A DNA stretch of 64,000 nt from an uncultured delta proteobacterium (lineage in GTDB: Bacteria > Myxococcota_A > Polyangia > Polyangiales > B10-G4). Made by a program: the position numbers and the translations under genes. A model generated the notes under the pieces. The model was not told the DNA's origin. It made no database searches and saw only the letters and a program-made list of their open reading frames with translations. This document shows positions 7,864-30,615 of the stretch, piece by piece (the stretch's first letter is position 1; every line of letters begins with the position of its first letter). The stretch spans positions 160,001-224,000 of the forward strand of contig CAVSGI010000009.1 of NCBI GenBank assembly GCA_963727445.1. The letters run 5' to 3'.

Positions 7864-7924
7864 ATCACATGGTCTAGCCGCGCTCCGTCATCGCGCCCAG
7901 TGCTCGGTGCTGTCGCCGGGCGCC

Positions 7925-8116
7925 GTCTCCGCGTCCGCCTCCGGGTCCGTCACCGCGTCCGTCTGCGCGTCCGCCTCCGCGTCCGCCTCCGGGTCCGTCA
8001 CCGCGTCCGTCTGCGCGTCCGTCTCCGGGTCCGTCTGCGCGTCCGTCTGCGCGTCCGTCTGTGCGTCCGTCTGCGCGTCCGTCTCAGCGTCCGTCTTCGA
8101 GTCCGTCTCCGTCTCC
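7925..8116. repeat. Degenerate hexamer tandem array (GCGTCC/GTCTGC/GCCTCC)n
   Basis: Visible 6-bp periodicity. Confidence 0.95.
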
Positions 8117-8151
8117 ATCCCGGGCGACCGGCTGGCGGTGATGTGTTCGGG

Positions 8152-8289
8152 GCTGACTGAGGGGAGAGGGACGCGGTGGGCGGCGGGCAAGCGGCCGTGC
8201 TCCTGGAGGCGCTCGCGTCGTTCGGGAGCGTGGGCGGGCCGCGGGCGGCTTCGCCGCGCCTCTGTCGGGGGCGAGGCCCCCGACACCCC
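8152..8289 (+). repeat. Left copy of ~138-bp REP-like inverted repeat
   Basis: Matches reverse complement of 9590-9726 in identical blocks; contains hairpins GCGGC-TTC-GCCGC and TGTCGGGGGC-GAG-GCCCCCGACA. Confidence 0.9.
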
Positions 8290-8374
8290 GCGGGGTCTCG
8301 GTGGGGCGAGGGGGTGAGTGACGGCCTGAGGCCGTCCGTCTCCACCAAACAGCTCGCCCTGTTCTACCCATTGT

Positions 8375-8455
8375 CTCGCTCCGTCTCCGCGTCCGCCTCC
8401 GCGTCCGTGTGCGGTCTGTCTCCGCTTCCGCTTTCGTGTCCGTCTCCGTGCCCGT
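8375..8455. repeat. Short degenerate hexamer array
   Basis: GTCTCC GCGTCC GCCTCC GCGTCC. Confidence 0.75.
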
Positions 8456-8540
8456 CAGCCGCCGGCCCCACTCCTCCGGCCGAACGTGGCGCAGCCACCC
8501 TCCGCTCCCGCAGTCAGCCACGGGGCCAGAGCCGCCCCAC

Positions 8541-9248
8541 TCATGCGGCCGAACGTGGCGGCACGTAGTCCGGCGCGATCCGTCCGCCCGCGCGCTTCCA
8601 GCCTTCGCGGAGCATCCAGGTGCCGGGCGGCACCACGGGCGGCGGGCCGTCGCGCTCCCTCTGCACGGGCCACTTCCATCCGTCGAAGACCTCCGCGCTC
8701 GAGCAGGGGTCGACGCGATCGCGTGAGCGTCGCCACGCACCGCGCACGCGATGTCGCCGCCCGTTGTTCAGCACGTAGCCGAGGGCGTTGCGAACCTTGC
8801 GCGGCTTGTCGAGCACGCGGTCGTGGTAGCGATCGGCCCACACCGTCCCTCGCGAGAACGTGAGCTGGTTGATGCGCCGGGCGATGGCGACCTTGATCCC
8901 CTTCATCGCCCGCGCCACCGCCCCTCGGCCGCCCGGGGCCTCGACGATCAGGTGGATGTGATTGCCCTGCACCGAGTAGTGCACGATGCGAAAGCCCGCT
9001 CGCGCCTTCCACCCCTCGAGCACGTCCTCGACGAGCGGCAGCACGAAGCGCCCCCGCAAGTCCGGCACGTGCTCACACACGCGCACGGTGATCGACAGCG
9101 GCACGCTCCGATGAAAGCGCTGCCGCCGCCCGTGCGGCACCCGCGCTCGCGCTCCGGCCCGTGGCCGGCCCGCCCCCTTTCGCTTCCCACCCCACGAGGG
9201 ATAGCGGAGCGACAGCTGCTTGGGCTTGCGAGTGCGGCGGCGCGGCAT
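8541..9248 (-). CDS. RAYT / IS200-like Y1 HUH transposase
   Basis: ITVR, YSVQGNHIHLIVEA (HUH), VWADRYH, candidate catalytic Tyr in GYVLNN; flanked by palindromic inverted repeats. Confidence 0.88.
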   Translation of the reverse strand: MPRRRTRKPKQLSLRYPSWGGKRKGAGRPRAGARARVPHGRRQRFHRSVPLSITVRVCEHVPDLRGRFVLPLVEDVLEGWKARAGFRIVHYSVQGNHIHLIVEAPGGRGAVARAMKGIKVAIARRINQLTFSRGTVWADRYHDRVLDKPRKVRNALGYVLNNGRRHRVRGAWRRSRDRVDPCSSAEVFDGWKWPVQRERDGPPPVVPPGTWMLREGWKRAGGRIAPDYVPPRSAA

Positions 9249-9336
9249 CTTGAATAGGCAGACAATAGCAGAATGGCCGCAGGCTGCAAGAGAAAAGCGC
9301 CGTCACCCTCGTGAACCACGATCGCTTCGGTCCCCA

Positions 9337-9572
9337 TCTCCGTCTCCGTCTCCGAGTCCGTTCCGAGTCCGAGTGCGAGTGCGAGTCCGCGTCCGTCTCC
9401 GCTTCCGCTTCCGTCTCCGTCGCCGCCTCCGTCTCCGCGGCCGAGTCCGAGTCCGAGTCCGAGTCTGAGTCCGAGTCCGAGTCCGCGTCCGCCTCCGCCT
9501 CCGCGTCCGTCTCCGTCGCCGCGGCCGAGTCCGCGTTCGTCTCCGCGTCCGCGTCAGCCTCCGCGTCCGCAT
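9337..9572. repeat. Degenerate hexamer tandem array (GAGTCC/GCGTCC/GTCTCC)n
   Basis: Visible 6-bp periodicity. Confidence 0.95.
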
Positions 9573-9589
9573 CCACCCACCCCGCCACG

Positions 9590-9726
9590 GGGGTGTCGGG
9601 GGCCTCGCCCCCGACAGAGGTGCGGCGAAGCCGCCCGCGGCCCACTTGCGCCTCCGAACACCACCAACGCCTCCAGGAGCACGTCCGCTCCCACGCCAGC
9701 CACCGCCCCCTCTCCCCTCAGTCAGC
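9590..9726 (-). repeat. Right copy of ~138-bp REP-like inverted repeat
   Basis: Reverse complement of 8152-8289; contains GCGGC-GAA-GCCGC. Confidence 0.9.
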
Positions 9727-9763
9727 TCCCAAGGCGATCGCCGTCGCCGCTCTCCGTCGTGGT

Positions 9764-9824
9764 TCTCCGTCGCCGCCTCCGCTTCCGCCTCCGCGTCCGC
9801 GTCCGCGTCCGCGTCCGCCTCCGC
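9764..9824. repeat. Hexamer array (GCGTCC)n
   Basis: GCTTCC GCCTCC (GCGTCC)4 GCCTCC. Confidence 0.85.
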
Positions 9825-9887
9825 CCCCCTCAGCTCGAGCCTTCCGTGCATCGAGGGCGTGCCCCATACTCGTGCTTTGGGGGGTCG

Positions 9888-19942: not shown

Positions 19943-20127
19943 AGGCCAAGCTCAAAGTCACGCAGTTGCGCAGCGGTATCGGGCGCCCTGCACACCAGAA
20001 CAAGATCCTTCGGGGCCTCGGGCTCCGCGGACCGAATCGGTCTGTGGTCGTGGCCAACACCGCGGACTTCCGCGGGATGATCAAGAAGGTGCTTCACCTC
20101 GTCACGGTGGAGGAGATCGATGGCTGA
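19939..20127 (+). CDS. rpmD: 50S protein L30
   Basis: [23 protein letters not shown]. Confidence 0.95.
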
Positions 20128-20639
20128 AGAAGTAAACGATGACGTCCCGATCCTCTCGCGGCTCTCGCCGCCGGAGGGCGCGGTGCGCGGCAAGAAGCGA
20201 AAGGGTCGCGGCGTGGGCTCCGGCCTCGGCAAGACCAGCGGCAAGGGCATGAAGGGTCAGAAGGCCCGCAGCCCCGGCAACTTCCAGCACCTCGGCTTCG
20301 AGGGTGGCCAGACGCCGATCTATCGTCGCCTCCCGAAGTTCGGCTTCAAGAACCCCTTCTCCAAGAAGGTCGCGACCGTGAACGTCGCCGATCTCGGCCC
20401 GCTTCGACGCGGGCGCGACGGTGAACGAGGAGTCGCTTCGCGAGGCGCGCCTCGTACGCGGCGTCTTCGACCGCATCAAGGTGCTCGGCAATGGGGAGCT
20501 CGACAAGAAGCTCACCGTCGAGGCGAACGCCTTCAGCAAGAGCGCGAAGGAGAAGATCGAGAAGGCCGGTGGCACCGTCACGGTCATCGAGATCCCGGAG
20601 CGCAAGTACGTCCGCGGAAAGAACCAAGCCGACAGCTGA
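20120..20639 (+). CDS. rplO: 50S protein L15 (apparent +1 frameshift ~20398)
   Basis: [28 protein letters not shown], then [23 protein letters not shown] in the next frame. Confidence 0.94.
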
Positions 20640-20656
20640 GCATCGGGGACTGCTGA

Positions 20657-21967
20657 ATGAGCGCCTTCGCGAACATCGCCAAGATTCCGGAGCTCCGGCG
20701 CCGCATCCTCTTCACCCTGGGGATGCTCGCCGTCTATCGGATCGGCATCTTCGTCACGTCACCCGGCGTCGACCGGAACGTGATGCAGCAGATCGTCTCT
20801 TCTCAGGGCGGTCTGCTCGGCATGTTCAACCTCTTCTCGGGAGGCGCGCTCGAGCAGCTCTCGATCTTCGCGCTGGGCATCATGCCCTACGTCACCTCGT
20901 CCATCATCCTTTCGCTGCTCGGCGTGGTCATCAAGCCGCTCGAGGAGCTGAAGAAGGAAGGCGAGGCCGGTCAGCGCAAGATCAATCAGTACACGCGTTA
21001 CGGCACCGCGGGCCTGAGCTTCGTTCAGAGCTTCGGCATCGCGCTCTACCTCGAGAGCCTCAACGCGAGCTCGGTCTATGGTGACGTCGTCGCCGAGCCG
21101 GGCTGGGGCTTCCGCATCCTGACGATCATCACGCTCACCACGGGGACCTGCTTCCTGATGTGGCTCGGCGAGCAGATCACCGAGCGCGGCATCGGTAACG
21201 GCATCTCGCTGATCATCTTCGCCGGCATCGTCGCGAACCTGCCCGACAACGTCGTGCAGACCTTCCAGATGGTGCAGATCGGCCAGATGGAGCCCATCAC
21301 GCTCCTGTTGGTGGTCGGCATCGGCCTCGGCGTGATCGCGGTCATCTGCTTCTTCGAGCGCGCCCAGCGCCGCCTGCCGATCCACTACGCCAAGCGCATG
21401 GTCGGCCGGAAGATGTACGGCGGACAGACCTCGCACCTGCCGCTTCGCGTGAACATGAGCGGCGTCATCCCGCCCATCTTCGCCTCGTCGCTGATGATGT
21501 TCCCGGTGACCCTCGGCACTTACAACGTGCCCGGGATGGATTGGGTCCAGCAGCAGTTGGTCCCGGGCACATGGAGCTACACCACCATCTTCGCGGCGAT
21601 GGTCATCTTCTTCTGCTTCTTCTACACGTCGGTCACCTTCCAGCCGGTCGACGTCGCGGAGAACCTCAAGAAGCAGAACGCGTTCATCCCGGGCATCCGC
21701 CCCGGCAAGGCGACGGCTGACTACATCGACCGCGTCGTGACGCGCATCACCTTCGGCGGCGCCCTCTACGTGGCGATCGTCTGCACCATCCCGGACCTCA
21801 TGCAGTCCGGCTGGCGCGTGCCGTTCTATCTCGGTGGCACCTCGCTCATGATCGTGGTCGGCGTCGCGCTCGACACCGTTCAGCAGATCGAGTCGCACCT
21901 CATCACGCGTCACTACGAGGGTCTGACCGGACCCAAGGGTCCGCGCATCAGAGGGAGGCGCGGCTGA
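20657..21967 (+). CDS. secY: Preprotein translocase SecY
   Basis: [38 protein letters not shown]. Confidence 0.98.
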
Positions 21968-22599
21968 TGGATCTCGTTCTCTTTGGACCCCCCGGCGCTG
22001 GCAAAGGCACCCAGGCCCAGCGCCTCACGGACATGCTCGAGGTCCCTCAGATCTCGACCGGCGACATGATGCGTGCCGAGAAGAAGTCCGGCTCGGACCT
22101 CGGGAAGAAGTTCGCCGAGTACATGGAGCAGGGAAAGCTGGTCCCCGACGAGATGGTCGGCGAGCTCATCAAGAAGCGCCTCGGTCAGGCTGACGCCAAA
22201 AACGGTGCGATCTTCGACGGTTACCCGCGGACCGTGGCCCAGGCCGAGCTCCTCGACCGGATCCTCGGCGAGCTCGAGCGCAAGGTCGACAAGGTCATCA
22301 GCATCGAGGTTCCGCTCGAGGACATCATCGAGCGAATCGGCGGAAGACGGACGGACCCGTCGACTGGACAAGTCTACCACCTGACGTACAATCCGCCCCC
22401 CGCTGACTTTTCGGGGGAGCTCGTCCAGCGCAAGGACGACACTCCCGAGGTCGTTCGCGAGCGCTACAAAGGCTACGAAAACAAGACTTTGCCGGTCCTT
22501 CCCTACTACGAGGCGAAGGGGCTGGTGGCAGCGGTGAACGGTGTCGGTTCACTCGACGAAGTAACGGAGCGTATCAAGGCAGCGATTGGAAAAAACTGA
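21967..22599 (+). CDS. adk: Adenylate kinase
   Basis: GPPGAGKGTQA, STGDM, DGYPRT. Confidence 0.97.
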   Translation: MDLVLFGPPGAGKGTQAQRLTDMLEVPQISTGDMMRAEKKSGSDLGKKFAEYMEQGKLVPDEMVGELIKKRLGQADAKNGAIFDGYPRTVAQAELLDRILGELERKVDKVISIEVPLEDIIERIGGRRTDPSTGQVYHLTYNPPPADFSGELVQRKDDTPEVVRERYKGYENKTLPVLPYYEAKGLVAAVNGVGSLDEVTERIKAAIGKN

Positions 22600-22792
22600 G
22601 GAAGGGATCATCGAATCGGCCGAGCCCCGCGGACTCTATCGGGTGCGAACCGACGCAGGTCAGATGTTGACCGCGTCGATCAGCAGCCACGCGCGGCGCG
22701 TCACCGTGAAGTTCCTTCCCGGCGATCGAGTGGAGGTAGCGATATCCCCCATCGATCCCAGCCGAGGCCGGATTACCAAGAGACTGAGCTAG
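22586..22792 (+). CDS. infA: Divergent translation initiation factor IF-1-like protein
   Basis: [19 protein letters not shown]-terminal half; position between adk and rpmJ; N-terminal half poorly conserved; TTG start. Confidence 0.7.
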
Positions 22793-22803
22793 CGAGAAGC
22801 ACG

Positions 22804-22917
22804 ATGAAGGTACGACCCAGCGTCAAGAAGATTTGTGACAAGTGCAAGGTCATCCGCCGCAAGGGTGTCGTGCGCGTCATCTGTGAAAACCCCCGCCACA
22901 AGCAGCGGCAGGGCTGA
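22804..22917 (+). CDS. rpmJ: 50S protein L36
   Basis: Manual translation [37 protein letters not shown]. Confidence 0.97.
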
Positions 22918-22934
22918 GAAGAGAGAGAAGAGTC

Positions 22935-23308
22935 ATGCCCCGCATTGCAGGCGTCGATATCCCGGGCCGTAAGCAGGTCCTCTATCTCGCTTCAGTACAT
23001 CTACGGAATCGGCCCGCAGATCGCGAAGGAGATCTGTGACAGGGCCGACATCCAGCCGGACAAGAAGGCGGACGACCTCGACGAGAACGAGGTGAAGCGG
23101 ATCCGCGAGGTCCTCGACCTCAACTTCAAGGTCGAGGGTGATCTTCGCCGCGACATCAACATGAACATCAAGCGCCTGATGGATCTCGGGTGCTATCGGG
23201 GTCTCCGCCATCGGCGCGGGCTCCCCGTGCGCGGCCAGCGCACTCACACCAACGCCCGCACCCGCAAGGGCCCGCGTCGTGGCGCGGCTGCCCGCCCGAA
23301 GAACGTAG
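22935..23308 (+). CDS. rpsM: 30S protein S13 (apparent +1 frameshifts ~22983 and near the stop)
   Basis: [10 protein letters not shown] then [28 protein letters not shown]; stop inferred at TAG 23306-23308. Confidence 0.92.
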
Positions 23309-23322
23309 ATAAGAGGACCGAG

Positions 23323-23716
23323 ATGGCCAAGCCCGCGAAAGCTTCGAAGAAGAAGACCAAGAAGAAGAACGTCGGCAGTGGGATCGCCCACATCCAGTCG
23401 ACGTTCAACAACACGATCGTCACGATCACCGACCTCGCCGGGAACACCGTTTCCTGGTCGAGCGCCGGCGCCCGCGGCTTCAAGGGCTCCCGCAAGAGCA
23501 CGCCCTTCGCGGCGCAGCTCGCCGCCGAGGACGCCATCCGCAAGGCGCAGGACCACGGCGTGACCTCGGTCGCGGTCTTCGTGAAGTGGTCCGGGCGCGG
23601 GCCGCGAGAGCGCGCTTCGCGCGTTCGGCAACGCTGGCATGCGCGTCACGCTCATCCGCGACGTCACCCCGATTCCCCACAACGGTTGTCGCCCTCCCAA
23701 GCGCCGCCGCGTCTGA
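23323..23716 (+). CDS. rpsK: 30S protein S11 (apparent +1 frameshift ~23587)
   Basis: [17 protein letters not shown], then [25 protein letters not shown]. Confidence 0.94.
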
Positions 23717-23736
23717 AGCTTAGAAGGTATTGAGAG

Positions 23737-24364
23737 ATGGCTCGTTACAACGGTCCGGTTTGTAAGCTCTGTCGTCGGGAAGGCATGAAGCTCTTCCTCA
23801 AGGGCGAGCGCTGCTACACCGACAAGTGCTCCTTCGACCGGCGTCCTTATCCGCCCGGCCAGCATGGCCAGCGCCGCATCAAGTTCACCGAGTACGGCAT
23901 CCGCCTTCGCGAGAAGCAGAAGGTCCGCCGCATCTACGGGATGGTCGAGAAGCAGTTCAAGCGCTACTTCAACGACGCCGACCGTCAGAAGGGCGTCACG
24001 GGTGAGAACTTCCTCTCGCTCCTCGAGCGCCGCCTCGACTCGCGTCACCTATCGTCTCGGCTTCGCCGCGACGCGTTCGGAGGCGCGCCAGCGGGTGCTC
24101 CACCGTCACATCCAGGTGAACGGCAAGACGGTCAACATCCCGAGCTACCGAATCAAGCCGGGCGACGTCGTCTCCGTCAAGGAGAAGAGCCGCAGCAAGC
24201 AGCGCATCGTCGAGTCCCTCGAGGGGGCCGAGCGGCGCGGGATTCCGGAGTGGCTCGAGCTCGACAAGGGCGCCTTCACCGGCACCGTCAAGACGCTCCC
24301 CATCCGCGAAGCCATCACGCTTCCGATTCAAGAACAGCTCATCGTCGAGTTCTACTCGCGGTAA
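23737..24364 (+). CDS. rpsD: 30S protein S4 (apparent +1 frameshift ~24043)
   Basis: [27 protein letters not shown] / [14 protein letters not shown]. Confidence 0.95.
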
Positions 24365-24388
24365 TCGCACCAGGGTCCAGGAGAACAG

Positions 24389-25412
24389 ATGAACCAGCTC
24401 ATCGCGCGCAACTGGCGGGACCTCATCCGCCCGAAGACCATCCCCGTCGACGAGGACACCCTCACCGACTACTACGGGAAGTTCGTCGCCGAGCCTCTCG
24501 AGCGCGGCTTCGGCCTCACCCTCGGGAACTCGCTCCGCCGGGTCCTGCTCTCGTCGCTCCAGGGTGCGGCGATCACCGACGTCAAGATCGATGGCGCTCT
24601 GCACGAGTTCACCTCGGTCCCAGACGTCGTCGAGGACGTCACGGAGATCGTCCTGAACCTGAAGGAGGTCATCATCAATTCGCACACCACCCAGTCCGGT
24701 GCAGGTGCGGATCGACAAGGAAGGCCCCTGTGAGGTCAAGGCCGGCGACATCGAGAAGTCGGACCAGATCGAGATCCTCAACCCCGACCACGTGCATCTG
24801 CACCGTGTCGAAGGGTGGCCGCTTCTCGGCCGAGCTCACCATCAACGTGGGCCGCGGCTACGTGCGCGCCGACCGCAACAAGGCGCCGGGCACGCCCATC
24901 GGCACCATCCCGATCGACGCGCTCTTCTCGCCGATCCGCAAGGTCAACTACACGGTGACCAACGCGCGCGTCGGGCAGCATGACCGACTACGACAAGCTC
25001 ACCCTCGAGGTCTGGACGAACGGGACGGTCAAGCCGCAGGACGCGGTGGCCTTCGCGGCGAAGATCCTCAAGGAGCAGCTCAACGTCTTCATCAACTTCG
25101 AGGAAGAGGAAGAGCCGGTCGAGCAGGAGGCCGAGGAGGAGCCGCTCAACGAGAACCTCTTCCGTTCGGTGGAGGAGCTCGAGCTCAGCGGTGCGCTCGG
25201 CGAACTGCCTGCAGAACGCGTCAACATCCACATCATCGGCGAGCTGGTCCAGAAGACCGAGGCCGAGATGCTCAAGACGAAGAACTTCGGCCGCAAGTAG
25301 CCTGAAGGAGATCAAGGAGATCCTCGCCGACATGGGCCTGTCCCTCGGCATGAAGATCGACAACTGGCCCCAGATGCTCGAGCGCTGGAAGGGTCAGCAG
25401 GGCGGCAGCTGA
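24389..25412 (+). CDS. rpoA: RNA polymerase alpha subunit (about six apparent indels)
   Basis: [58 protein letters not shown], distributed across frames. Confidence 0.95.
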
Positions 25413-25452: not shown

Positions 25453-25974
25453 ATGCGACATCAGAAGGCAGGCCGGAAGTTCGGCCGTAACACCAGCCAC
25501 CGCCGGGCCATGTTCCGGAACCTCGCGGGGAACTTGATCCTGCACGAGAGGATCGAGACCACCGAGGCGAAGGCCAAGGAGCTCCGTCGGGTCGCCGAGC
25601 GGCTCATCACCCGGGCCACGCGCCTCGGTGACGACCTCACGGCGGACATCGGCAAGCTGAAGGACGAGGATCGCGAGCGCGTCGTCGCGCGGCGCACCCA
25701 CGCCCAGCGTAAGGTCGCCGCGTTCCTTCCGAAGCGGATGAGCCGGACGACCGGCGACGGAGACGTCGAAGAGGTCGATCTGGTTCACAAGCTCTTCCAC
25801 GACATCGCCCCGCGGTACATGGACCGCATCGGCGAGGGCAAGGGCGGCGGCTACACCCGGATCATCAAGAAGATCCGCCGCAAGGGCGACAACGCCCCGA
25901 TGGCGATCATCGAGCTCATCGGCAGCGAGACGGACTTCAGCGAAGACGCTGGGGACGACGACGACGACGAGTAA
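25453..25974 (+). CDS. rplQ: 50S protein L17
   Basis: [42 protein letters not shown]. Confidence 0.97.
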
Positions 25975-26022
25975 CGGATAACGGCTCGTGCGCAATGAGG
26001 CGCGCGTGTTGGGAGAGGCGGG

Positions 26023-26050
26023 AGCCCGGGTCGAGAGACTCGGGCTTTTT
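26023..26050 (+). terminator. Intrinsic terminator ending the ribosomal operon
   Basis: AGCCCGGGTC-GAGA-GACTCGGGCT + T run. Confidence 0.85.
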
Positions 26051-26060
26051 GCCGTTAACG

Positions 26061-26190
26061 GCGTTGGCGTTGGCGTTGGCGTTGGCGTTGGCGTTGGCGT
26101 TCGCGTTGGCGTTGGCGTTGACGTTCGCGTTGGCGTTGACGTTCGCGTTGGCGTTCGCGTTCACGTGGGCGTTCGCGTTCGCGTTGGCGT
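26061..26190. repeat. Hexamer array (GCGTTG/GCGTTC/ACGTTC)n, ~21 units
   Basis: Direct reading. Confidence 0.97.
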
Positions 26191-26192
26191 GC

Positions 26193-26261
26193 GGCTCTTC
26201 TTCGCTTCGCTCGAACTCGCCGCGAGGGGGACGGCTCTTCTTCGCTTCGCTCGAACTCGCC
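26193..26261 (+). repeat. Two copies of 29-bp repeat GGCTCTTCTTCGCTTCGCTCGAACTCGCC
   Basis: 26193-26221 and 26233-26261, with an 11-bp purine-rich linker. Confidence 0.97.
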
Positions 26262-26276
26262 TTCGAATGAGGGCGT

Positions 26277-26436
26277 GGGCTCCTTTGCTCGGGCGGCCGC
26301 GAGGGTGCCGCCGTGCTCGGCCGCGTCAAGGCTCGCGCCGCCGGAGGCGGCGCGACCGGAGCTCCGCTCCGGCTGAAGGCCTTGACCCGGCCTGCGCGCG
26401 GCGGCGGGGGGCCGGCTTTCACGAGCAAAGGAGCTC
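26277..26436 (+). promoter_or_regulatory. Structured leader, copy 1; closing stem sequesters the SD
   Basis: GGGCTCCTTTGCTCG (26277-91) pairs with CGAGCAAAGGAGCTC (26422-36); five internal helices. Confidence 0.65.
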
Positions 26437-26440
26437 AAGC

Positions 26441-26767
26441 ATGAAAGACTTCAAGTGTTACCAACTCTCTCTCGAAGGTGTGCGGCTGGTGAGGCCGTTG
26501 ATCGAGGGGATCGAGAGGCATGACCGGGATCTGGGGCGTCAGCTGCGGAGGTGTCTGAGCAGTGTGCCGTTGAATGTTGCCGAGGGGAGTCGCTCGAGCG
26601 GGAAGAACAAGCAAGCGCGGTATGCGAACGCGATGGGCTCGGCCCGGGAGGCGGTCGCGTGTCTCGAGACGGCAGAGGCGCTGGGATATCTGAGGCAGGA
26701 GGCGCTACCGGTGCCGATCGACAAGCTCGAGCACGTCGTCGCGATTCTCTTCAACCTCTGTCGGTAG
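26441..26767 (+). CDS. Four-helix-bundle protein (23S rRNA IVP / Avd-like fold), copy 1
   Basis: DLGRQLRRCLSSVPLNVAEG..ANAMGSARE..LETAEALGY matches the family pattern QLRRA..S...NIAEG..A.GS..E; 108 aa; SD AAGGAG. Confidence 0.88.
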   Translation: MKDFKCYQLSLEGVRLVRPLIEGIERHDRDLGRQLRRCLSSVPLNVAEGSRSSGKNKQARYANAMGSAREAVACLETAEALGYLRQEALPVPIDKLEHVVAILFNLCR

Positions 26768-26850
26768 CCGGGGCAGCGAGTGACGGCCGCCTGTGGATCG
26801 CCGGCGGCCGTCGCTCTGCGGACTCGCCGCCAGAACCGGGTCATCCGGTT

Positions 26851-27177
26851 CTACTTGCGACGCAGCATCCATAGGAGGCCGAGAAGGGCTGCGCCGACTA
26901 TGCCGATGGTCAGGTAGGAGAAGCTCACCGGATGGCTCGTGGGAGGCGTGTATGGGCGCATGGAGAGCTGGTCGATCTCGCGACGCGTTTGCTCCCGGCG
27001 TCGCCGGCGCTCGATCCCGCGTTTGGTGCGCCGGTGGTCGAAGCCAACCTGGCAGCCGCCGCCGGCGCTGTGCGCCCCGAGCGACGCTCCGTCACTCCCG
27101 CCTCCTGCCGAGGCGAGCCCAGCGACGAGAAGTCCCGCGCACCACAGGCGCGCGAGTCGACCGTGCCCCCTTCCCAT
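26851..27177 (-). CDS. Hypothetical small protein with C-terminal TM helix and basic tail
   Basis: MGRGHGRLARLWCAGLLVAGLASAG...LTIGIVGAALLGLLWMLRRK; start uncertain. Confidence 0.45.
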   Translation of the reverse strand: MGRGHGRLARLWCAGLLVAGLASAGGGSDGASLGAHSAGGGCQVGFDHRRTKRGIERRRRREQTRREIDQLSMRPYTPPTSHPVSFSYLTIGIVGAALLGLLWMLRRK

Positions 27178-27268
27178 GCAGAGACCGTAGCACGCTGCAC
27201 GCGAGCGGCCCTGGGGCGCGCGACATGACTCGAAGACAAGCGAACGAGCCGAATCGACGGGGGGGGCC

Positions 27269-27410
27269 GCGTTGGCGTTGGCGTGAGCGTGGGCGATGGC
27301 GTTCGCGTTGGCGTTCGCGTTGGCGTTCGCGTGGGCGTTCGCGTTGGCGTTCGCGTTGGCGTTGGCGTTCACGTTCACGTTCACGTTCACGTTCGCGCGG
27401 GCGTTCGCGT
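27269..27410. repeat. Hexamer array (GCGTTG/GCGTTC/ACGTTC)n, ~23 units
   Basis: Direct reading; unit order differs from copy 1. Confidence 0.97.
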
Positions 27411-27412
27411 GT

Positions 27413-27558
27413 GGCTCTTCTTCGCTTCGCTCGAACTCGCCGGAGGAGGTCGGCTCTTCTTCGCTTCGCTCGAACTCGCCGGAGGAGGTCGGCTCTTCTT
27501 CGCTTCGCTCGAACTCGCCGGAGGGGGTCGGCTCTTCTTCGCTTCGCTCGAACTCGCC
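27413..27558 (+). repeat. Four copies of the same 29-bp repeat, 39-bp period
   Basis: Starts 27413, 27452, 27491, 27530; linkers GGAGGAGGTC twice and GGAGGGGGTC. Confidence 0.97.
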
Positions 27559-27573
27559 TTCGAATGAGGGCGT

Positions 27574-27732
27574 GGGCTCCTTTGCTCGGGCGGCCGCGAG
27601 GGTGCCGCCGTGCTCGGCCGCGTCAAGGCTCGCGCCGCCGGAGGCGGCGCGCCCGGAGCTCCGCTCCGGCTGAAGGCCTTGACCCGGCCTGCGCGCGGCG
27701 GCGGGGGGCGGCTTTCACGAGCAAAGGAGCTC
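27574..27732 (+). promoter_or_regulatory. Structured leader, copy 2
   Basis: Nearly identical to 26277-26436. Confidence 0.65.
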
Positions 27733-27736
27733 AAGC

Positions 27737-28063
27737 ATGAAAGACTTCAAGTGTTATCAACTCTCTCTCGACGCCGTGCGGTTGGTGAGGCCGTTGATCG
27801 AGGGGATCGAGAGGCATGACCGGGATCTGGGGCGTCAGCTGCGGAGGTGTCTGAGCAGTGTGCCGTTGAATGTTGCCGAGGGGAGTCGCTCGAGCGGGAA
27901 GAACAAGCAAGCGCGGTATGCGAACGCGATGGGCTCGGCCCGGGAGGCGGTCGCGTGTCTCGAGACGGCAGAGGCGCTGGGATATCTGAGGCAGGAGGCG
28001 CTACCGGTGCCGATCGACAAGCTCGAGCACGTCGTCGCGATTCTCTTCAATCTCTGTCGGTGA
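27737..28063 (+). CDS. Four-helix-bundle protein, copy 2
   Basis: Differs from copy 1 at two residues (EG to DA). Confidence 0.88.
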   Translation: MKDFKCYQLSLDAVRLVRPLIEGIERHDRDLGRQLRRCLSSVPLNVAEGSRSSGKNKQARYANAMGSAREAVACLETAEALGYLRQEALPVPIDKLEHVVAILFNLCR

Positions 28064-28077
28064 TGATCTCGGCACGG

Positions 28078-28230
28078 CGGCCATTGCTCGCAGGATGACA
28101 ACCAATTCTCCGCGCAATGGCCGCTTTGCGGCCAATGCTCTCGGGATACGCCTCCATCCCCCGCGTTGTGGCCGCATTCCGGCCATTGCGGCTGGGATGA
28201 CCCTTCATCCCCTGTGTTGTGACCGCGATG
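28078..28230. repeat. Three tandem 51-bp degenerate palindromes (REP/BIME-like)
   Basis: Units begin CGGCCA at 28078, 28129, 28180; unit 1 stem CGGCCATTGC/GCAATGGCCG. Confidence 0.8.
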
Positions 28231-28277
28231 ACACTCACGGCGAACGTCCCGCGACGCGCTCGACCTGGCGAAATCTC

Positions 28278-30615
28278 TCAGCAATCTGTAAAGCCCCCTG
28301 CCATCGCGCAGGTGTCCACGTCACCCACGATCCCATCGACCCCGGCCGTACCGTCGTTGCCGTCCTGCTCACCTGCGGGGGCCGTTGGGGCCGAGGCTCC
28401 GCCCGCGCCGCCGGTCCCCGCGCTTCCGCCGCTGAAGGCGCATCCCTGCCGGATGGTCGAGGACTCGCTGAAGATGCCCATGGACACGCCGCCGGCTCCG
28501 CCGCCGCCGCCGCCACCATGCCCTCCGTGCGCCCCCGCGGCCCCTCGCCCTCCTGGCCCTGAACCTCCGGCTCCCAGCCCCCCGGCCGCGCCCGCGCCGC
28601 CGCTCTGACCGCGCCCGCCCACGCCGCCCGCGCCGCCGGCGCCCCCGTCACCTTGCACCACGTCGCAGTCCGAGAGGTCCAACGTCGCGTCGACGGCGAA
28701 CACACCGAAGCTCCCGCCGCCGCCACCCCCGCGGCCGCCGCCCGCCAAGGCGGCGCATCCCCCGGCGCCGCCGCCACCGCCGCCTGCGCCATGAGCGTCG
28801 GTGCCCGCATCGCAGCCCCCACTGCCCGCGCCGCCGCCGCCGCCCGAGCCATTCTCCCCGGTCCCCCCCTGGCTACCGCTCGCGGCCACCCAGTAGTCGC
28901 CCATCATCAGGCCCCGTGCGTTCATGGCACCGATTCCGGCCCTGCCGTTGCTCATGCGCCCCTCGTACCCCGAGCCCGTGAGCCCACACGTAGTGCCGTT
29001 CAGCCCGCCAACGCCCACGTATGTCATCATGTTCGAGTAGGCCGCGTTCCCCCCGGGGCCGCCGGGTGTCGCCCTGTAGTCGAGCGCGGAGCAGTCGGCG
29101 TCCATCTTGCCGCCGACGCCGCCACCGCCGCCGCCCGGAAGCGTCGTGCCCGGACCGGTGCACCGGTTGTTCCCCCCCGGGCCTCCCGCCCCACGCGTCG
29201 TGTCGTCGCAGACCGTCGCGTAGTAGTCCGCGTTGCCGCCGCCGACTCCGTTCATGTAGCCCGCTGAATCGACCATGGGCGCGTCCACACCCGCCGTTCC
29301 ATCAGCGCCCGCTACGCCGTTACCCGCTTGGATCGTCGCCCTCACGATATCGAAGCCCGGAACGCGCGCCGCGTGCACGACGTAGGTCGACGCCCCCGCT
29401 CCCGACGCATCCGGTCCGACCAGTACCAGACCGTCGAGCGTGGGCGCGACGGTGAGATCGTGGGCGTTCACGGTCAGGTACTGGCCACTGTCGGTGTCGA
29501 GGCCACCCCGGATGAGGGTGCGGTGCGTCGACTCACTCCTGTCACCGCGCACCCAATCGGCGTCGTAGCCGCCGAAGATGCGGATGCCGTCGCTCAGCGT
29601 CACCACCTCGTTGTAGGCGCCGGCCATGACGAAGAGGTCGTCGCGGCCTTCGGCGGCGGCGCGCGTCATTCCGTAATCGATGGTGCGGCAGGGCGTGGCG
29701 AAGTCGAGGCCGCAGCTCGAGGAGTCATCACCGGCGGTGCCCGACACCAGGATCCCCTGCGTCAGGTCCCCGTCGATGCCGTCGCAATTCGAGTCGACGA
29801 AGGAGCCGTCCGGGTCGTCGGATTCCGGGGGCGACTGCGCACTCGCAGCCGTTGCTGGGGTCACGGTCGGCGTCCCCGTAGCCCTCCGCGCACGAAATGC
29901 CGCAGGTGCCCGCGTTGCAACCTGCCACGGCGTGGACCTGCGCAGGCGTGGTGTCCGGACACACGACGCAGTCGTTCGTGCCCGTCGGGCCGCAGTGCAT
30001 CGCGTCGTTCAGGTGGTCGGCCGGCGTTTGCACGCAAGCGCTCATGGACTCGACGCACTCGTCGATGGTGCAGCTGTCGTCGTCGGTGCAGTCCGGCATG
30101 CCGACGCTCTGGCACGCGCCCGTCACGCAGACCTGGACCCCGCCGCAGAAGCCGCCGTACCGGGCGCAATCCGCGTCGGATTCGCAGGTTCCGCTCGGCA
30201 CACAGCCCCTGCCGACACCGCAGACCGTTCCGCTCGGGCACGAGCTGTCGTCGGGGGTGTTCTGGCAGGCGTCGGTTGCGGCGAGGCACGTGTCGACGGT
30301 GCACACGAAGCCGTCGTCGCAGGTGGGCGGCGGGTCCTGGGTGCAGATCCCGCGCTGGCACGTGACGGTGCCATTGCAGAAGACTCCGTCGTCGGCGCAG
30401 TCGTTGTCGGTGGTGCAGTCGCCGCCGATCGCGACGGACCCGTCCGCACGTCCCCCGTCGGCCCCCCCGTCGGCCGGCTCCGCGTCGGAGCTCGAGCTTT
30501 CGGAGCCGCAGGCCGCAACCGTCATGACGGTCAGGCAGGCTCCCACGAGCAGGGCAGCGGGCGAGTCGCAGGGTCGAGAGGGCAAGAGACCGACGGATAT
30601 TCGCATTGCGGCCAT
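28278..30615 (-). CDS. Cys-rich / Gly-rich (PGRS-like) lipoprotein, split by an apparent +1 frameshift ~29830
   Basis: VAAC lipobox, CDDGFVCTVDTC repeats, SNGCEC joining DSNCDGIDG, then GGAGG-rich C terminus; span is 3n+1. Confidence 0.75.

Follow-up and report, generated by a model that had tools for sequence, protein, structure and literature searches.

What are two nearly identical repeat-flanked gene units doing side by side behind a ribosomal-protein operon, and under what circumstances would the small protein that each encodes be made? The units lie in a 64,000-nucleotide (nt) stretch of contig CAVSGI010000009.1 (positions 160,001-224,000; hereafter the window, from a genome that we label G000), and each consists of a hexamer array, a run of 29-mers, a folded leader and a gene for a 108-residue protein of the PF05635 family. 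We consider it somewhat probable that the units belong to a cassette that is dispersed and spreads slowly, and that its leader, as predicted from its sequence, would act as a single-stranded DNA (ssDNA) promoter and so restrict synthesis of the protein to times when the template strand is free.

The case for a promoter begins on the antisense strand of the leader core, where the layout is TT[G/T]ACN, 16 nt, and then N-A-N-N-N-T. Scans with a core pattern returned at least 119 loci from genomes and at least 119 from metagenomes, and every count of cores given here and below is among the matches listed. The -11 and -7 positions were absent from the search pattern. A at -11 together with T at -7 (A-11 and T-7), at a spacing of 16 nt, is found in 39 of 73 non-redundant cores, against none in the sense control and 0-3 at other spacers; in 36 of 51 representatives from non-Caulobacteraceae genomes, against a background of 2.0%; and in 66 of 82 cores of an independent metagenome set, where the sense strand gives 1 of 82 and other spacers give 0-5. 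These are the bases that sigma-70 flips out as a promoter melts from -11, and conservation within the otherwise degenerate -10 is limited to them. Both are gone from gene-less Caulobacteraceae repeats (0 of 19 representatives) and both are kept in all nine of the 82 metagenome cores that stand ahead of a PF05635 gene.

Base pairing respects the same boundary. From -17 to -12, Watson-Crick pairs are present in 34-50 of 52 and 53-76 of 82 representatives; the stem covaries here, most positions showing each of the four pair types, so that changes up to -12 are compensatory. From -11 to -7 the pairs drop to 5-17 of 52 and 11-18 of 82. The collapse from -11 is seen again in alignment A3, a hand-picked 40 of the 52 representatives that leans towards motif-bearing cores and whose conservation marks we left unused. 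In the window itself, the predicted fold leaves -11 to -6 open and opens again from +1 to +4, this further bubble facing positions 27713-27717. The Shine-Dalgarno (SD) site has an unpaired probability of 0.0 in the read-through RNA and of 0.86 in RNA from the predicted start, with the SD about 10 nt and the ATG about 22 nt further on. The leader folds better than chance, with z = -6.6 as RNA and z = -7.9 as antisense DNA, and none of 200 shuffles did equally well.

Which strand folds, and whether it does so as DNA or as RNA, can be asked of the inner part of the core, which the pattern left unconstrained. Here 128 distinct cores, many of them from a few genomes, have 201 antisense and 5 sense GNA tri-loop hairpins, where shuffling leads one to expect 11.5 and 5.1, respectively; in the non-redundant metagenome set the count is 90 antisense to 4 sense. 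Of the 201 antisense loops, 153 are closed by G and so cannot be c(UNCG)g RNA loops, and GCGNAGC is an unusually stable mini-hairpin as DNA and a weak one as RNA. Wobble pairs of the inner stem, moreover, read as antisense G.T by 24 to 4 in genomes and by 20 to 6 in metagenomes.

How such a leader might work can be pictured as follows. In the double-stranded state the promoter signals would aim away from the gene, and any read-through RNA would bury its ribosome-binding site. When the template strand comes free, most likely upon single-strand entry into a cell, for which conjugation or transformation might serve, or else in a single-stranded copying intermediate, the folded antisense strand would offer RNA polymerase a duplex -35 and a pre-melted -10. 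Transcription of the other arm would then start at about 27713-27717 and yield an mRNA whose leader is short and leaves the ribosome-binding site free, an RNA that could additionally prime second-strand synthesis. The weakest step is the final one, in which the protein, being basic and Avd-like, would form a coat on the single strand (perhaps on its hexamer repeats) and aid persistence or insertion of the DNA. Frequent convergent pairs of cassettes would fit coverage of either strand. The promoter model is both precise and mutable, comprising two bases, one bubble and a predicted start, and thus the timing of PF05635 expression becomes testable.

At the same time, a number of observations weigh against this picture. 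Leaders of another genome, G119, keep A-11 at a spacing of 17 nt and lack T-7 in 20 of 23 cases, a tally that, like our other per-genome leader tallies, is exploratory, one of the 13 seeds of the local PF05635 profile being out of frame and giving a few false rows. Subfamilies B and D of G000 carry perfect inverted repeats over the start codon that do not suit the geometry. The promoter model applies to the window's leader type, and not to the entire family. As duplex DNA, the -35 and -10 hexamers could equally be taken for a weak leftward promoter of the ordinary sort; an invariant position of the outer stem forms A.C on the antisense strand (37 of 52) and a G.T wobble on the sense strand; and the whole window leader, folded as DNA, does slightly better on the sense strand, at -75.7 against -72.2 kcal/mol. 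Two close congeners have three of four loci in common, and turnover must therefore be slow and movement rare. Finally, the cassette is chromosomal and shows no replication-strand bias in G119 (17 co-directional against 14 head-on copies, by hand count and with the origin assumed at dnaA), so the source of ssDNA is something that we infer; GC skew in G000 is too weak for strand assignment.

The first-pass annotation of the window had treated the leader as a module of the cassette. It turns out to be far less exclusive, a widespread mobile-DNA hairpin with the geometry of an ssDNA promoter. PF05635 genes, identified with the local profile in the genome set, adjoin the core at 6 of 80 genome loci and in 9 of 82 metagenome representatives. 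Its other neighbours include IS110 transposases, the istB gene of IS21, an IS4-type transposase, ISL3, rve transposases, a tyrosine integrase with HTH_17, RadC and ParB, and transposase or integrase families stand beside 13 of 82 metagenome representatives. Transposase genes downstream of the core are in sense orientation in three of four metagenome cases, and in ISBj4-type IS110 elements the core hairpin follows the transposase gene. Hexamer arrays accompany the core beside PF05635 genes (four cases) or where the flank is short (one), and at none of 58 others. The core pattern was not found in viral contigs, Rfam returned no credible match for the window region or for the core at 10 other loci, and blastn of the window leader against plasmids gave matches at chance level only; the protein, for its part, matched one plasmid record and no phage record.

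Some of these settings deserve description in their own right. In ISBj4-type IS110 elements (L093:1240-1400 and plasmid matches H31-H43) the hairpin lies directly after the stop codon of the transposase gene, and its fold-back form would be aimed at the non-coding end downstream. In an IS21 element (L156:1501-1572) the core sits between istA-like and istB genes, on the opposite strand and with a degenerate -10. One genome without a PF05635 match (G025, L034-L037) carries the core in a repeated miniature element that has no gene and is bounded by TG...CA, which we take to be IS21-like. Caulobacteraceae (L088, L108, L115, L139 and others) have gene-less core repeats, often as convergent pairs about 290-350 base pairs (bp) apart.

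That the cassette itself is dispersed is a matter of observation, and the two window units are sister copies of recent date. G000 holds 16 PF05635 matches in four subfamilies, and a hexamer array lies within about 650 bp upstream of 15 of the 16 genes, as it does for 1.06% of random points, and within 300 bp downstream of none. The window's subfamily has two more copies in G000, one frameshifted and one internally deleted, such that two of four are broken. A congener, G001, has at least eight copies with leader and gene and a single 29-mer wherever that part assembled, and amplification of the 29-mer is therefore private to the window pair. The fixed order of modules that had been proposed extends to the dispersed copies of G000, G001 and G119 (22 of the 23 genes examined by eye in the last, which has 31 matches), and the expectation that the 5' repeats change faster than the core of the unit was borne out; in G119 the hexamer unit tracks protein subfamily, 8 of 8 genes having one unit and 14 of 14 another, again by eye.

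Occupancy differs between genomes at orthologous sites. The site after rplQ is empty in G001, where an unrelated gene stands; the two testable G000 sites (rplQ and a C10 gene) are both empty in G001; five G001 sites with a clear flanking orthologue in G000 have no PF05635 gene at the counterpart; and none of the seven sites is common to both. Synteny extends to both sides for just one interval, bounded by a regulator gene and a tRNA gene, and its filled state in G001 is split over two contigs. Across the order the family is present in 62 of 121 genomes, with copy numbers from 0 to at least 35. A one-off local duplication, the possibility raised at the outset, does not fit the other copies at different sites in G000 and G001. 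Terminal inverted repeats or a target-site duplication were not seen by eye in copies from G000, G001 and G119, the empty sites being too diverged to give exact ends.

Several features of the dispersed copies may be recorded here. Hexamer arrays number 115 in G000; most stand apart from any PF05635 gene, and many have a common CCGTTC-type unit. Among its loci at C9:916800, C9:924400 and C12:56600 and the pairs on C6, C14, C25 and C27, subfamily B and D leaders are perfect inverted repeats of their own gene start, genes of subfamilies C and D make up five convergent pairs with a common 3' hairpin, and the two C9 copies lie within a duplicated block. In G001 a second palindromic repeat of about 100 bp interrupts two of the cassette genes, follows another, and at a further locus separates an array from its 29-mer (L024, L028, L032, L033), and in G119 an additional module of about 75 bp lies within the 3' arm of three leaders (L228, L231, L232).

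Returning to the window, both units are present where they had been placed, with the parts that had been assigned to them (Table 1). Their leaders (26262-26440 and 27559-27736) are 98.9% identical. The coding sequences differ at 8 nt, clustered towards the ends as had been noted, with five in codons 7-16, one in codon 105 and two in the stop (TAG/TGA), and the proteins differ at two residues (EG/DA). The arrays, on the other hand, differ in hexamer order (22 versus 24 hexamers) and the 29-mers in copy number (two versus four, at a period of 39-40 bp). Unit 1 does begin next to the ribosomal-operon terminator, its array starting 10 bp past the last T of the rplQ terminator. The description of the pair as direct repeats is right in that both copies are real, and wrong if taken to mean a head-to-tail arrangement: 501 unique bp, within which lies a small minus-strand open reading frame (ORF), separate them, and a head-to-tail tandem duplication is ruled out by that segment. 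Similarly, the abrupt end of similarity at the stop codon is true of the window pair and not of the family, since 7 of 9 3' ends in G001 run into a common hairpin. An assembly artefact that turned one copy into two is unlikely: the flanks of the copies differ, and the junction of copy 1 with the spacer is matched without difference by low-depth contigs from two public runs, no record bridging both copies.

Table 1. Features of the two units and their surroundings, in window coordinates. Leader folds for unit 1 are taken from copy 2, which is 98.9% identical.
Feature	Position	Strand	Remarks
rplQ intrinsic terminator	26023..26050	+	host sequence, left neighbour of unit 1
Hexamer array, unit 1	26060..26191	+	22 units, mostly GGCGTT/CGCGTT
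Two 29-mers, unit 1	26193-26221, 26233-26261	+	minus strand of each has a GCGAAGC mini-hairpin
Leader, unit 1: fold-back hairpin	26262..26440	+	outer stem covers SD site 26427-26433 in read-through RNA
Predicted fold-back promoter, unit 1	26302..26329	-	-35 TTGACG 26329-26324, 16 nt, -10 CACCCT 26307-26302
Four-helix-bundle gene, copy 1	26441..26767	+	PF05635/TIGR02436, 108 amino acids
Hairpin 3' of copy 1 stop	26778..26816	+	weak likeness to other palindromes of G000; absent from copy 2
Spacer ORF	26851..27177	-	108 amino acids, hydrophobic C-terminus, outside cassette
Hexamer array, unit 2	27268..27411	+	24 units
Four 29-mers, unit 2	27413..27558	+	starts 27413, 27452, 27491, 27530; 39-bp period
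Leader, unit 2	27559..27736	+	anti-SD arm about 27570-27588, partner arm TTGAC 27679-27683, predicted +1 bubble 27713-27717, SD 27723-27729
Predicted fold-back promoter, unit 2	27599..27626	-	-35 TTGACG 27626-27621 paired, 16 nt, -10 CACCCT 27604-27599, predicted unpaired -11 to -6
Four-helix-bundle gene, copy 2	27737..28063	+	108 amino acids, isoelectric point 9.1

The spacer ORF has no Pfam match and no paralogue. Palindromic repeats with a 51-bp period (28072-28226) directly follow copy 2 and have no other match in G000, and upstream of the units, at 20120-25412, rplO, rpsK, rpsD and rpoA look frameshifted, probably through assembly indels.

PF05635 proteins are widespread and several structures are solved, and we know of no function for them outside diversity-generating retroelements (DGRs). 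A hidden Markov model search upheld the assignment of the window proteins to PF05635/TIGR02436, both copies scoring 54-56 bits against cut-offs of 33.8 and 24. An AlphaFold2 model of the 108-residue protein (pLDDT 96.9) has four helices, and the fold it predicts resembles that of Avd, as had been anticipated, with a template-modelling (TM) score of 0.82 to 4DWL; the scores are 0.89 to Xcc0516 (2GSC) and 0.84 to BT_0352 (2RLD). The protein also has the R-S-N-E motif spacing described in the accessible part of PMC3936711, with Q at the first place. Among eight intact copies the ratio of nonsynonymous to synonymous substitution rates (dN/dS) is 0.05-0.16 in 28 of 28 pairs. Such purifying selection in parallel copies indicates that the protein is no passive passenger.

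What moves the cassette is a separate question. PF05635 is the only domain matched in the unit, in line with the earlier statement that no catalyst is encoded there. The corollary, that a catalyst acts in trans, fared less well, in that both testable candidates fail to track the cassette. One is the RAYT subfamily (REP-associated tyrosine transposase) of the window, which is present in 6 of 16 genomes with at least 10 PF05635 matches, and three genomes with 23 scored RAYT copies have no PF05635 match (one unpublished genome was left out of these counts). The other is a reverse transcriptase (RT), for which 3 of the same 16 genomes have no PF00078 match, among them G117, with 30 PF05635 matches and 96% completeness; RT is present in 81 of 121 genomes irrespective of the cassette. 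The RAYT-like gene of the window, a Y1_Tnp gene at 8544-9248 on the minus strand, lies in a segment (7900-9830) where it is flanked by hexamer arrays and GC-rich hairpins, and it has a sister at C10:985543 of G000, while elsewhere in the order the number of copies per genome reaches at least 23.

The same facts can be arranged differently, most simply by letting the promoter work as duplex DNA. It would then fire leftward, and the antisense RNA so made would span the array and the 29-mers as well as the anti-SD arm. The hairpin would act in sense RNA as a leader that keeps translation locked, with the antisense RNA serving either to unlock that leader or as partner of the protein. The hexamers and their spacing are identical under this arrangement, the sense RNA folds strongly (z -6.6) with its SD paired, in the outer stem there is a sense-strand G.U, with G001 showing a compensatory change, and one invariant wobble favours the sense strand. 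We nonetheless regard it as unlikely, because it gives no account of why pairing stops at -12 in two independent sets, or of the antisense DNA-type GCGNAGC loops and antisense G.T wobbles. Alternatively, the hairpin might serve mainly as a second-strand priming site on single-stranded intermediates, akin to single-strand initiation sites and origins (ssi/sso), on many mobile elements, with the gene as incidental cargo. The usual position of the hairpin after the transposase stop in IS110 elements would suit this, as would the gene-less core repeats, often in convergent pairs, and the report, in the accessible part of its source (cited below), that transcripts of Frpo-type promoters can prime synthesis. 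Yet a priming site would not explain why A-11/T-7 should be lost precisely in gene-less Caulobacteraceae repeats (0/19), nor why an SD and an ATG should follow the predicted start at about 10 and 22 nt and the protein be under purifying selection, and we hold the idea to be rather improbable.

Two further proposals concern the gene more than the leader. The cassette could be a host-useful stress gene, occasionally duplicated by recombination or slippage at microsatellites and lacking any self-directed mobility. Purifying selection, the three of four loci kept between close congeners and the 115 hexamer arrays of G000, most without the gene, could all be cited for it; the two of four same-subfamily copies that are broken in G000, a copy number that varies within the order between 0 and at least 35, the absence of any shared site among the seven testable ones with G001, and a leader core typical of mobile DNA tell against it and make it very unlikely. 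A retroposition model, in which an RT acting in trans copies the read-through RNA with help from the Avd-like protein, would make the cDNA the folding antisense strand. It draws on the fold common with Avd of DGRs (TM 0.82), on the folding strand being the one that a cDNA would have, and on the many co-oriented copies right after a host stop codon or terminator. The distribution of RT, missing from three of 16 cassette-rich genomes and otherwise present in 81 of 121 regardless, and the lack of an RT or of a template-repeat/variable-repeat (TR/VR) pair near the window, render it very unlikely indeed.

With an ssDNA promoter as the preferred reading, one may ask how far it might reach. A bolder version, which we put forward as possible though doubtful, is that the cassette is a chromosomal selfish element activated by single-strandedness, in which a new class of fold-back promoter, found in several phyla and also in integrase elements and those of IS110, IS21 and ISL3, would direct synthesis of an Avd-like protein in cis whenever the DNA is transferred or copied as a single strand; that protein would bind the hexamers of its own subfamily and drive establishment, and convergent pairs would cover either strand. 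Were this true, the orphan family PF05635 would gain a function, and zygotic induction would extend from plasmids to chromosomes and insertion sequences. Even the more limited claim has consequences: if the hairpin is active, ssDNA promoters would be a common part of insertion sequences and chromosomal cassettes, beyond the leading regions of plasmids, and this would bear on how mobile DNA activates itself upon entering a new cell. In the literature that we searched, mostly open-access, we found no description of a repeat-flanked PF05635 cassette, or of ssDNA promoters in insertion sequences or chromosomal cassettes, and the accessible parts of PMC5524665, PMC5737381 and PMC11109978 hold nothing matching the core motif. 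What is new here includes the -10 and bubble statistics, obtained blind and replicated, the core common to several transposase families, the finding that gene-less repeats no longer have the -10, the evidence of purifying selection, the empty sites and two rejected catalysts.

Among known systems, the protein leads first to DGRs. A link between PF05635-type proteins and Avd is drawn in the accessible part of PMC10053308, and the window protein, which is basic (isoelectric point 9.1), has a four-helix fold in common with the DGR accessory protein (PDB 4DWL, 8UB7 series) while being only 12% identical to it. No RT, TR or VR lies near the window units, the sole PF00078 match in G000 is on another contig, and one of the six sense-codon differences between the copies involves A, which falls short of the adenine signature of TR/VR pairs. 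The intervening sequence (IVS) of 23S rRNA is closer in one respect: it encodes the same protein family, and in Coxiella, according to the accessible part of PMC4990558, the S23p ORF is preceded by two or three heptamers, variable-number short tandem repeats upstream of an ORF as in the window. There, however, the IVS lies in the rRNA gene and its arms enclose the ORF, which is described as decaying, whereas the window units are intergenic after rplQ, with no rRNA match in 25900-28300, their inverted repeat closes before the ATG with no arm pairing across the coding sequence, and the ORF of the window family is conserved. With REPINs and their RAYTs and with miniature inverted-repeat transposable elements (MITEs) the cassette shares dispersed intergenic copies, and its leader core occurs within IS110, IS21 and ISL3 elements as well as in a gene-less miniature element. 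It has no transposase of its own. Unlike these elements, it carries a conserved non-catalytic gene, and the window's RAYT subfamily fails to track it.

The nearest relatives in design are the ssDNA promoters of plasmid leading regions. In the accessible portions of PMC9849209 and PMC11541004, Frpo is described as folding as ssDNA, rebuilding -10 and -35 boxes and driving early genes in recipients. Class 2 ssDNA promoters upstream of klcA and ardA, with starts mapped in pESBL and conserved in F, are reported by Wen et al. (PMC12672017, in part), and priming of second-strand synthesis by transcripts of Frpo-type promoters in the accessible part of 10.64898/2026.01.09.698686. As in these Frpo/ssi elements, notably class 2, the window leader places a hairpin (z -7.9) on the template strand upstream of the gene, with a -35-like box in the duplex of its 3' arm and the gene start just past the hairpin base, and its -35 and -10 boxes, on the fold-back arm, are predicted to aim at the gene only when folded; the F hairpin upstream of an antirestriction gene has an unpaired A in the same register as A-11 of the window leader, and GCGAAGC and CCGCAGC loops on its transferred strand, loops of a kind that also occur on the window's antisense strand. 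The differences are equally plain. There is no sequence homology to the core in the 11.5-kb F leading region, where the best nhmmer E-value is 3.5; and Frpo/ssi belong to plasmid leading regions, whereas the window cassette is chromosomal, multi-copy and adjoins a ribosomal-protein operon. The cassette also differs in its flanking hexamer arrays and in an outer stem that is predicted to lock the SD in read-through RNA as well. In this context, the leader would best be seen as a new variant within a known kind of control element, the ssDNA promoter, carried inside a cassette that fits no established class.

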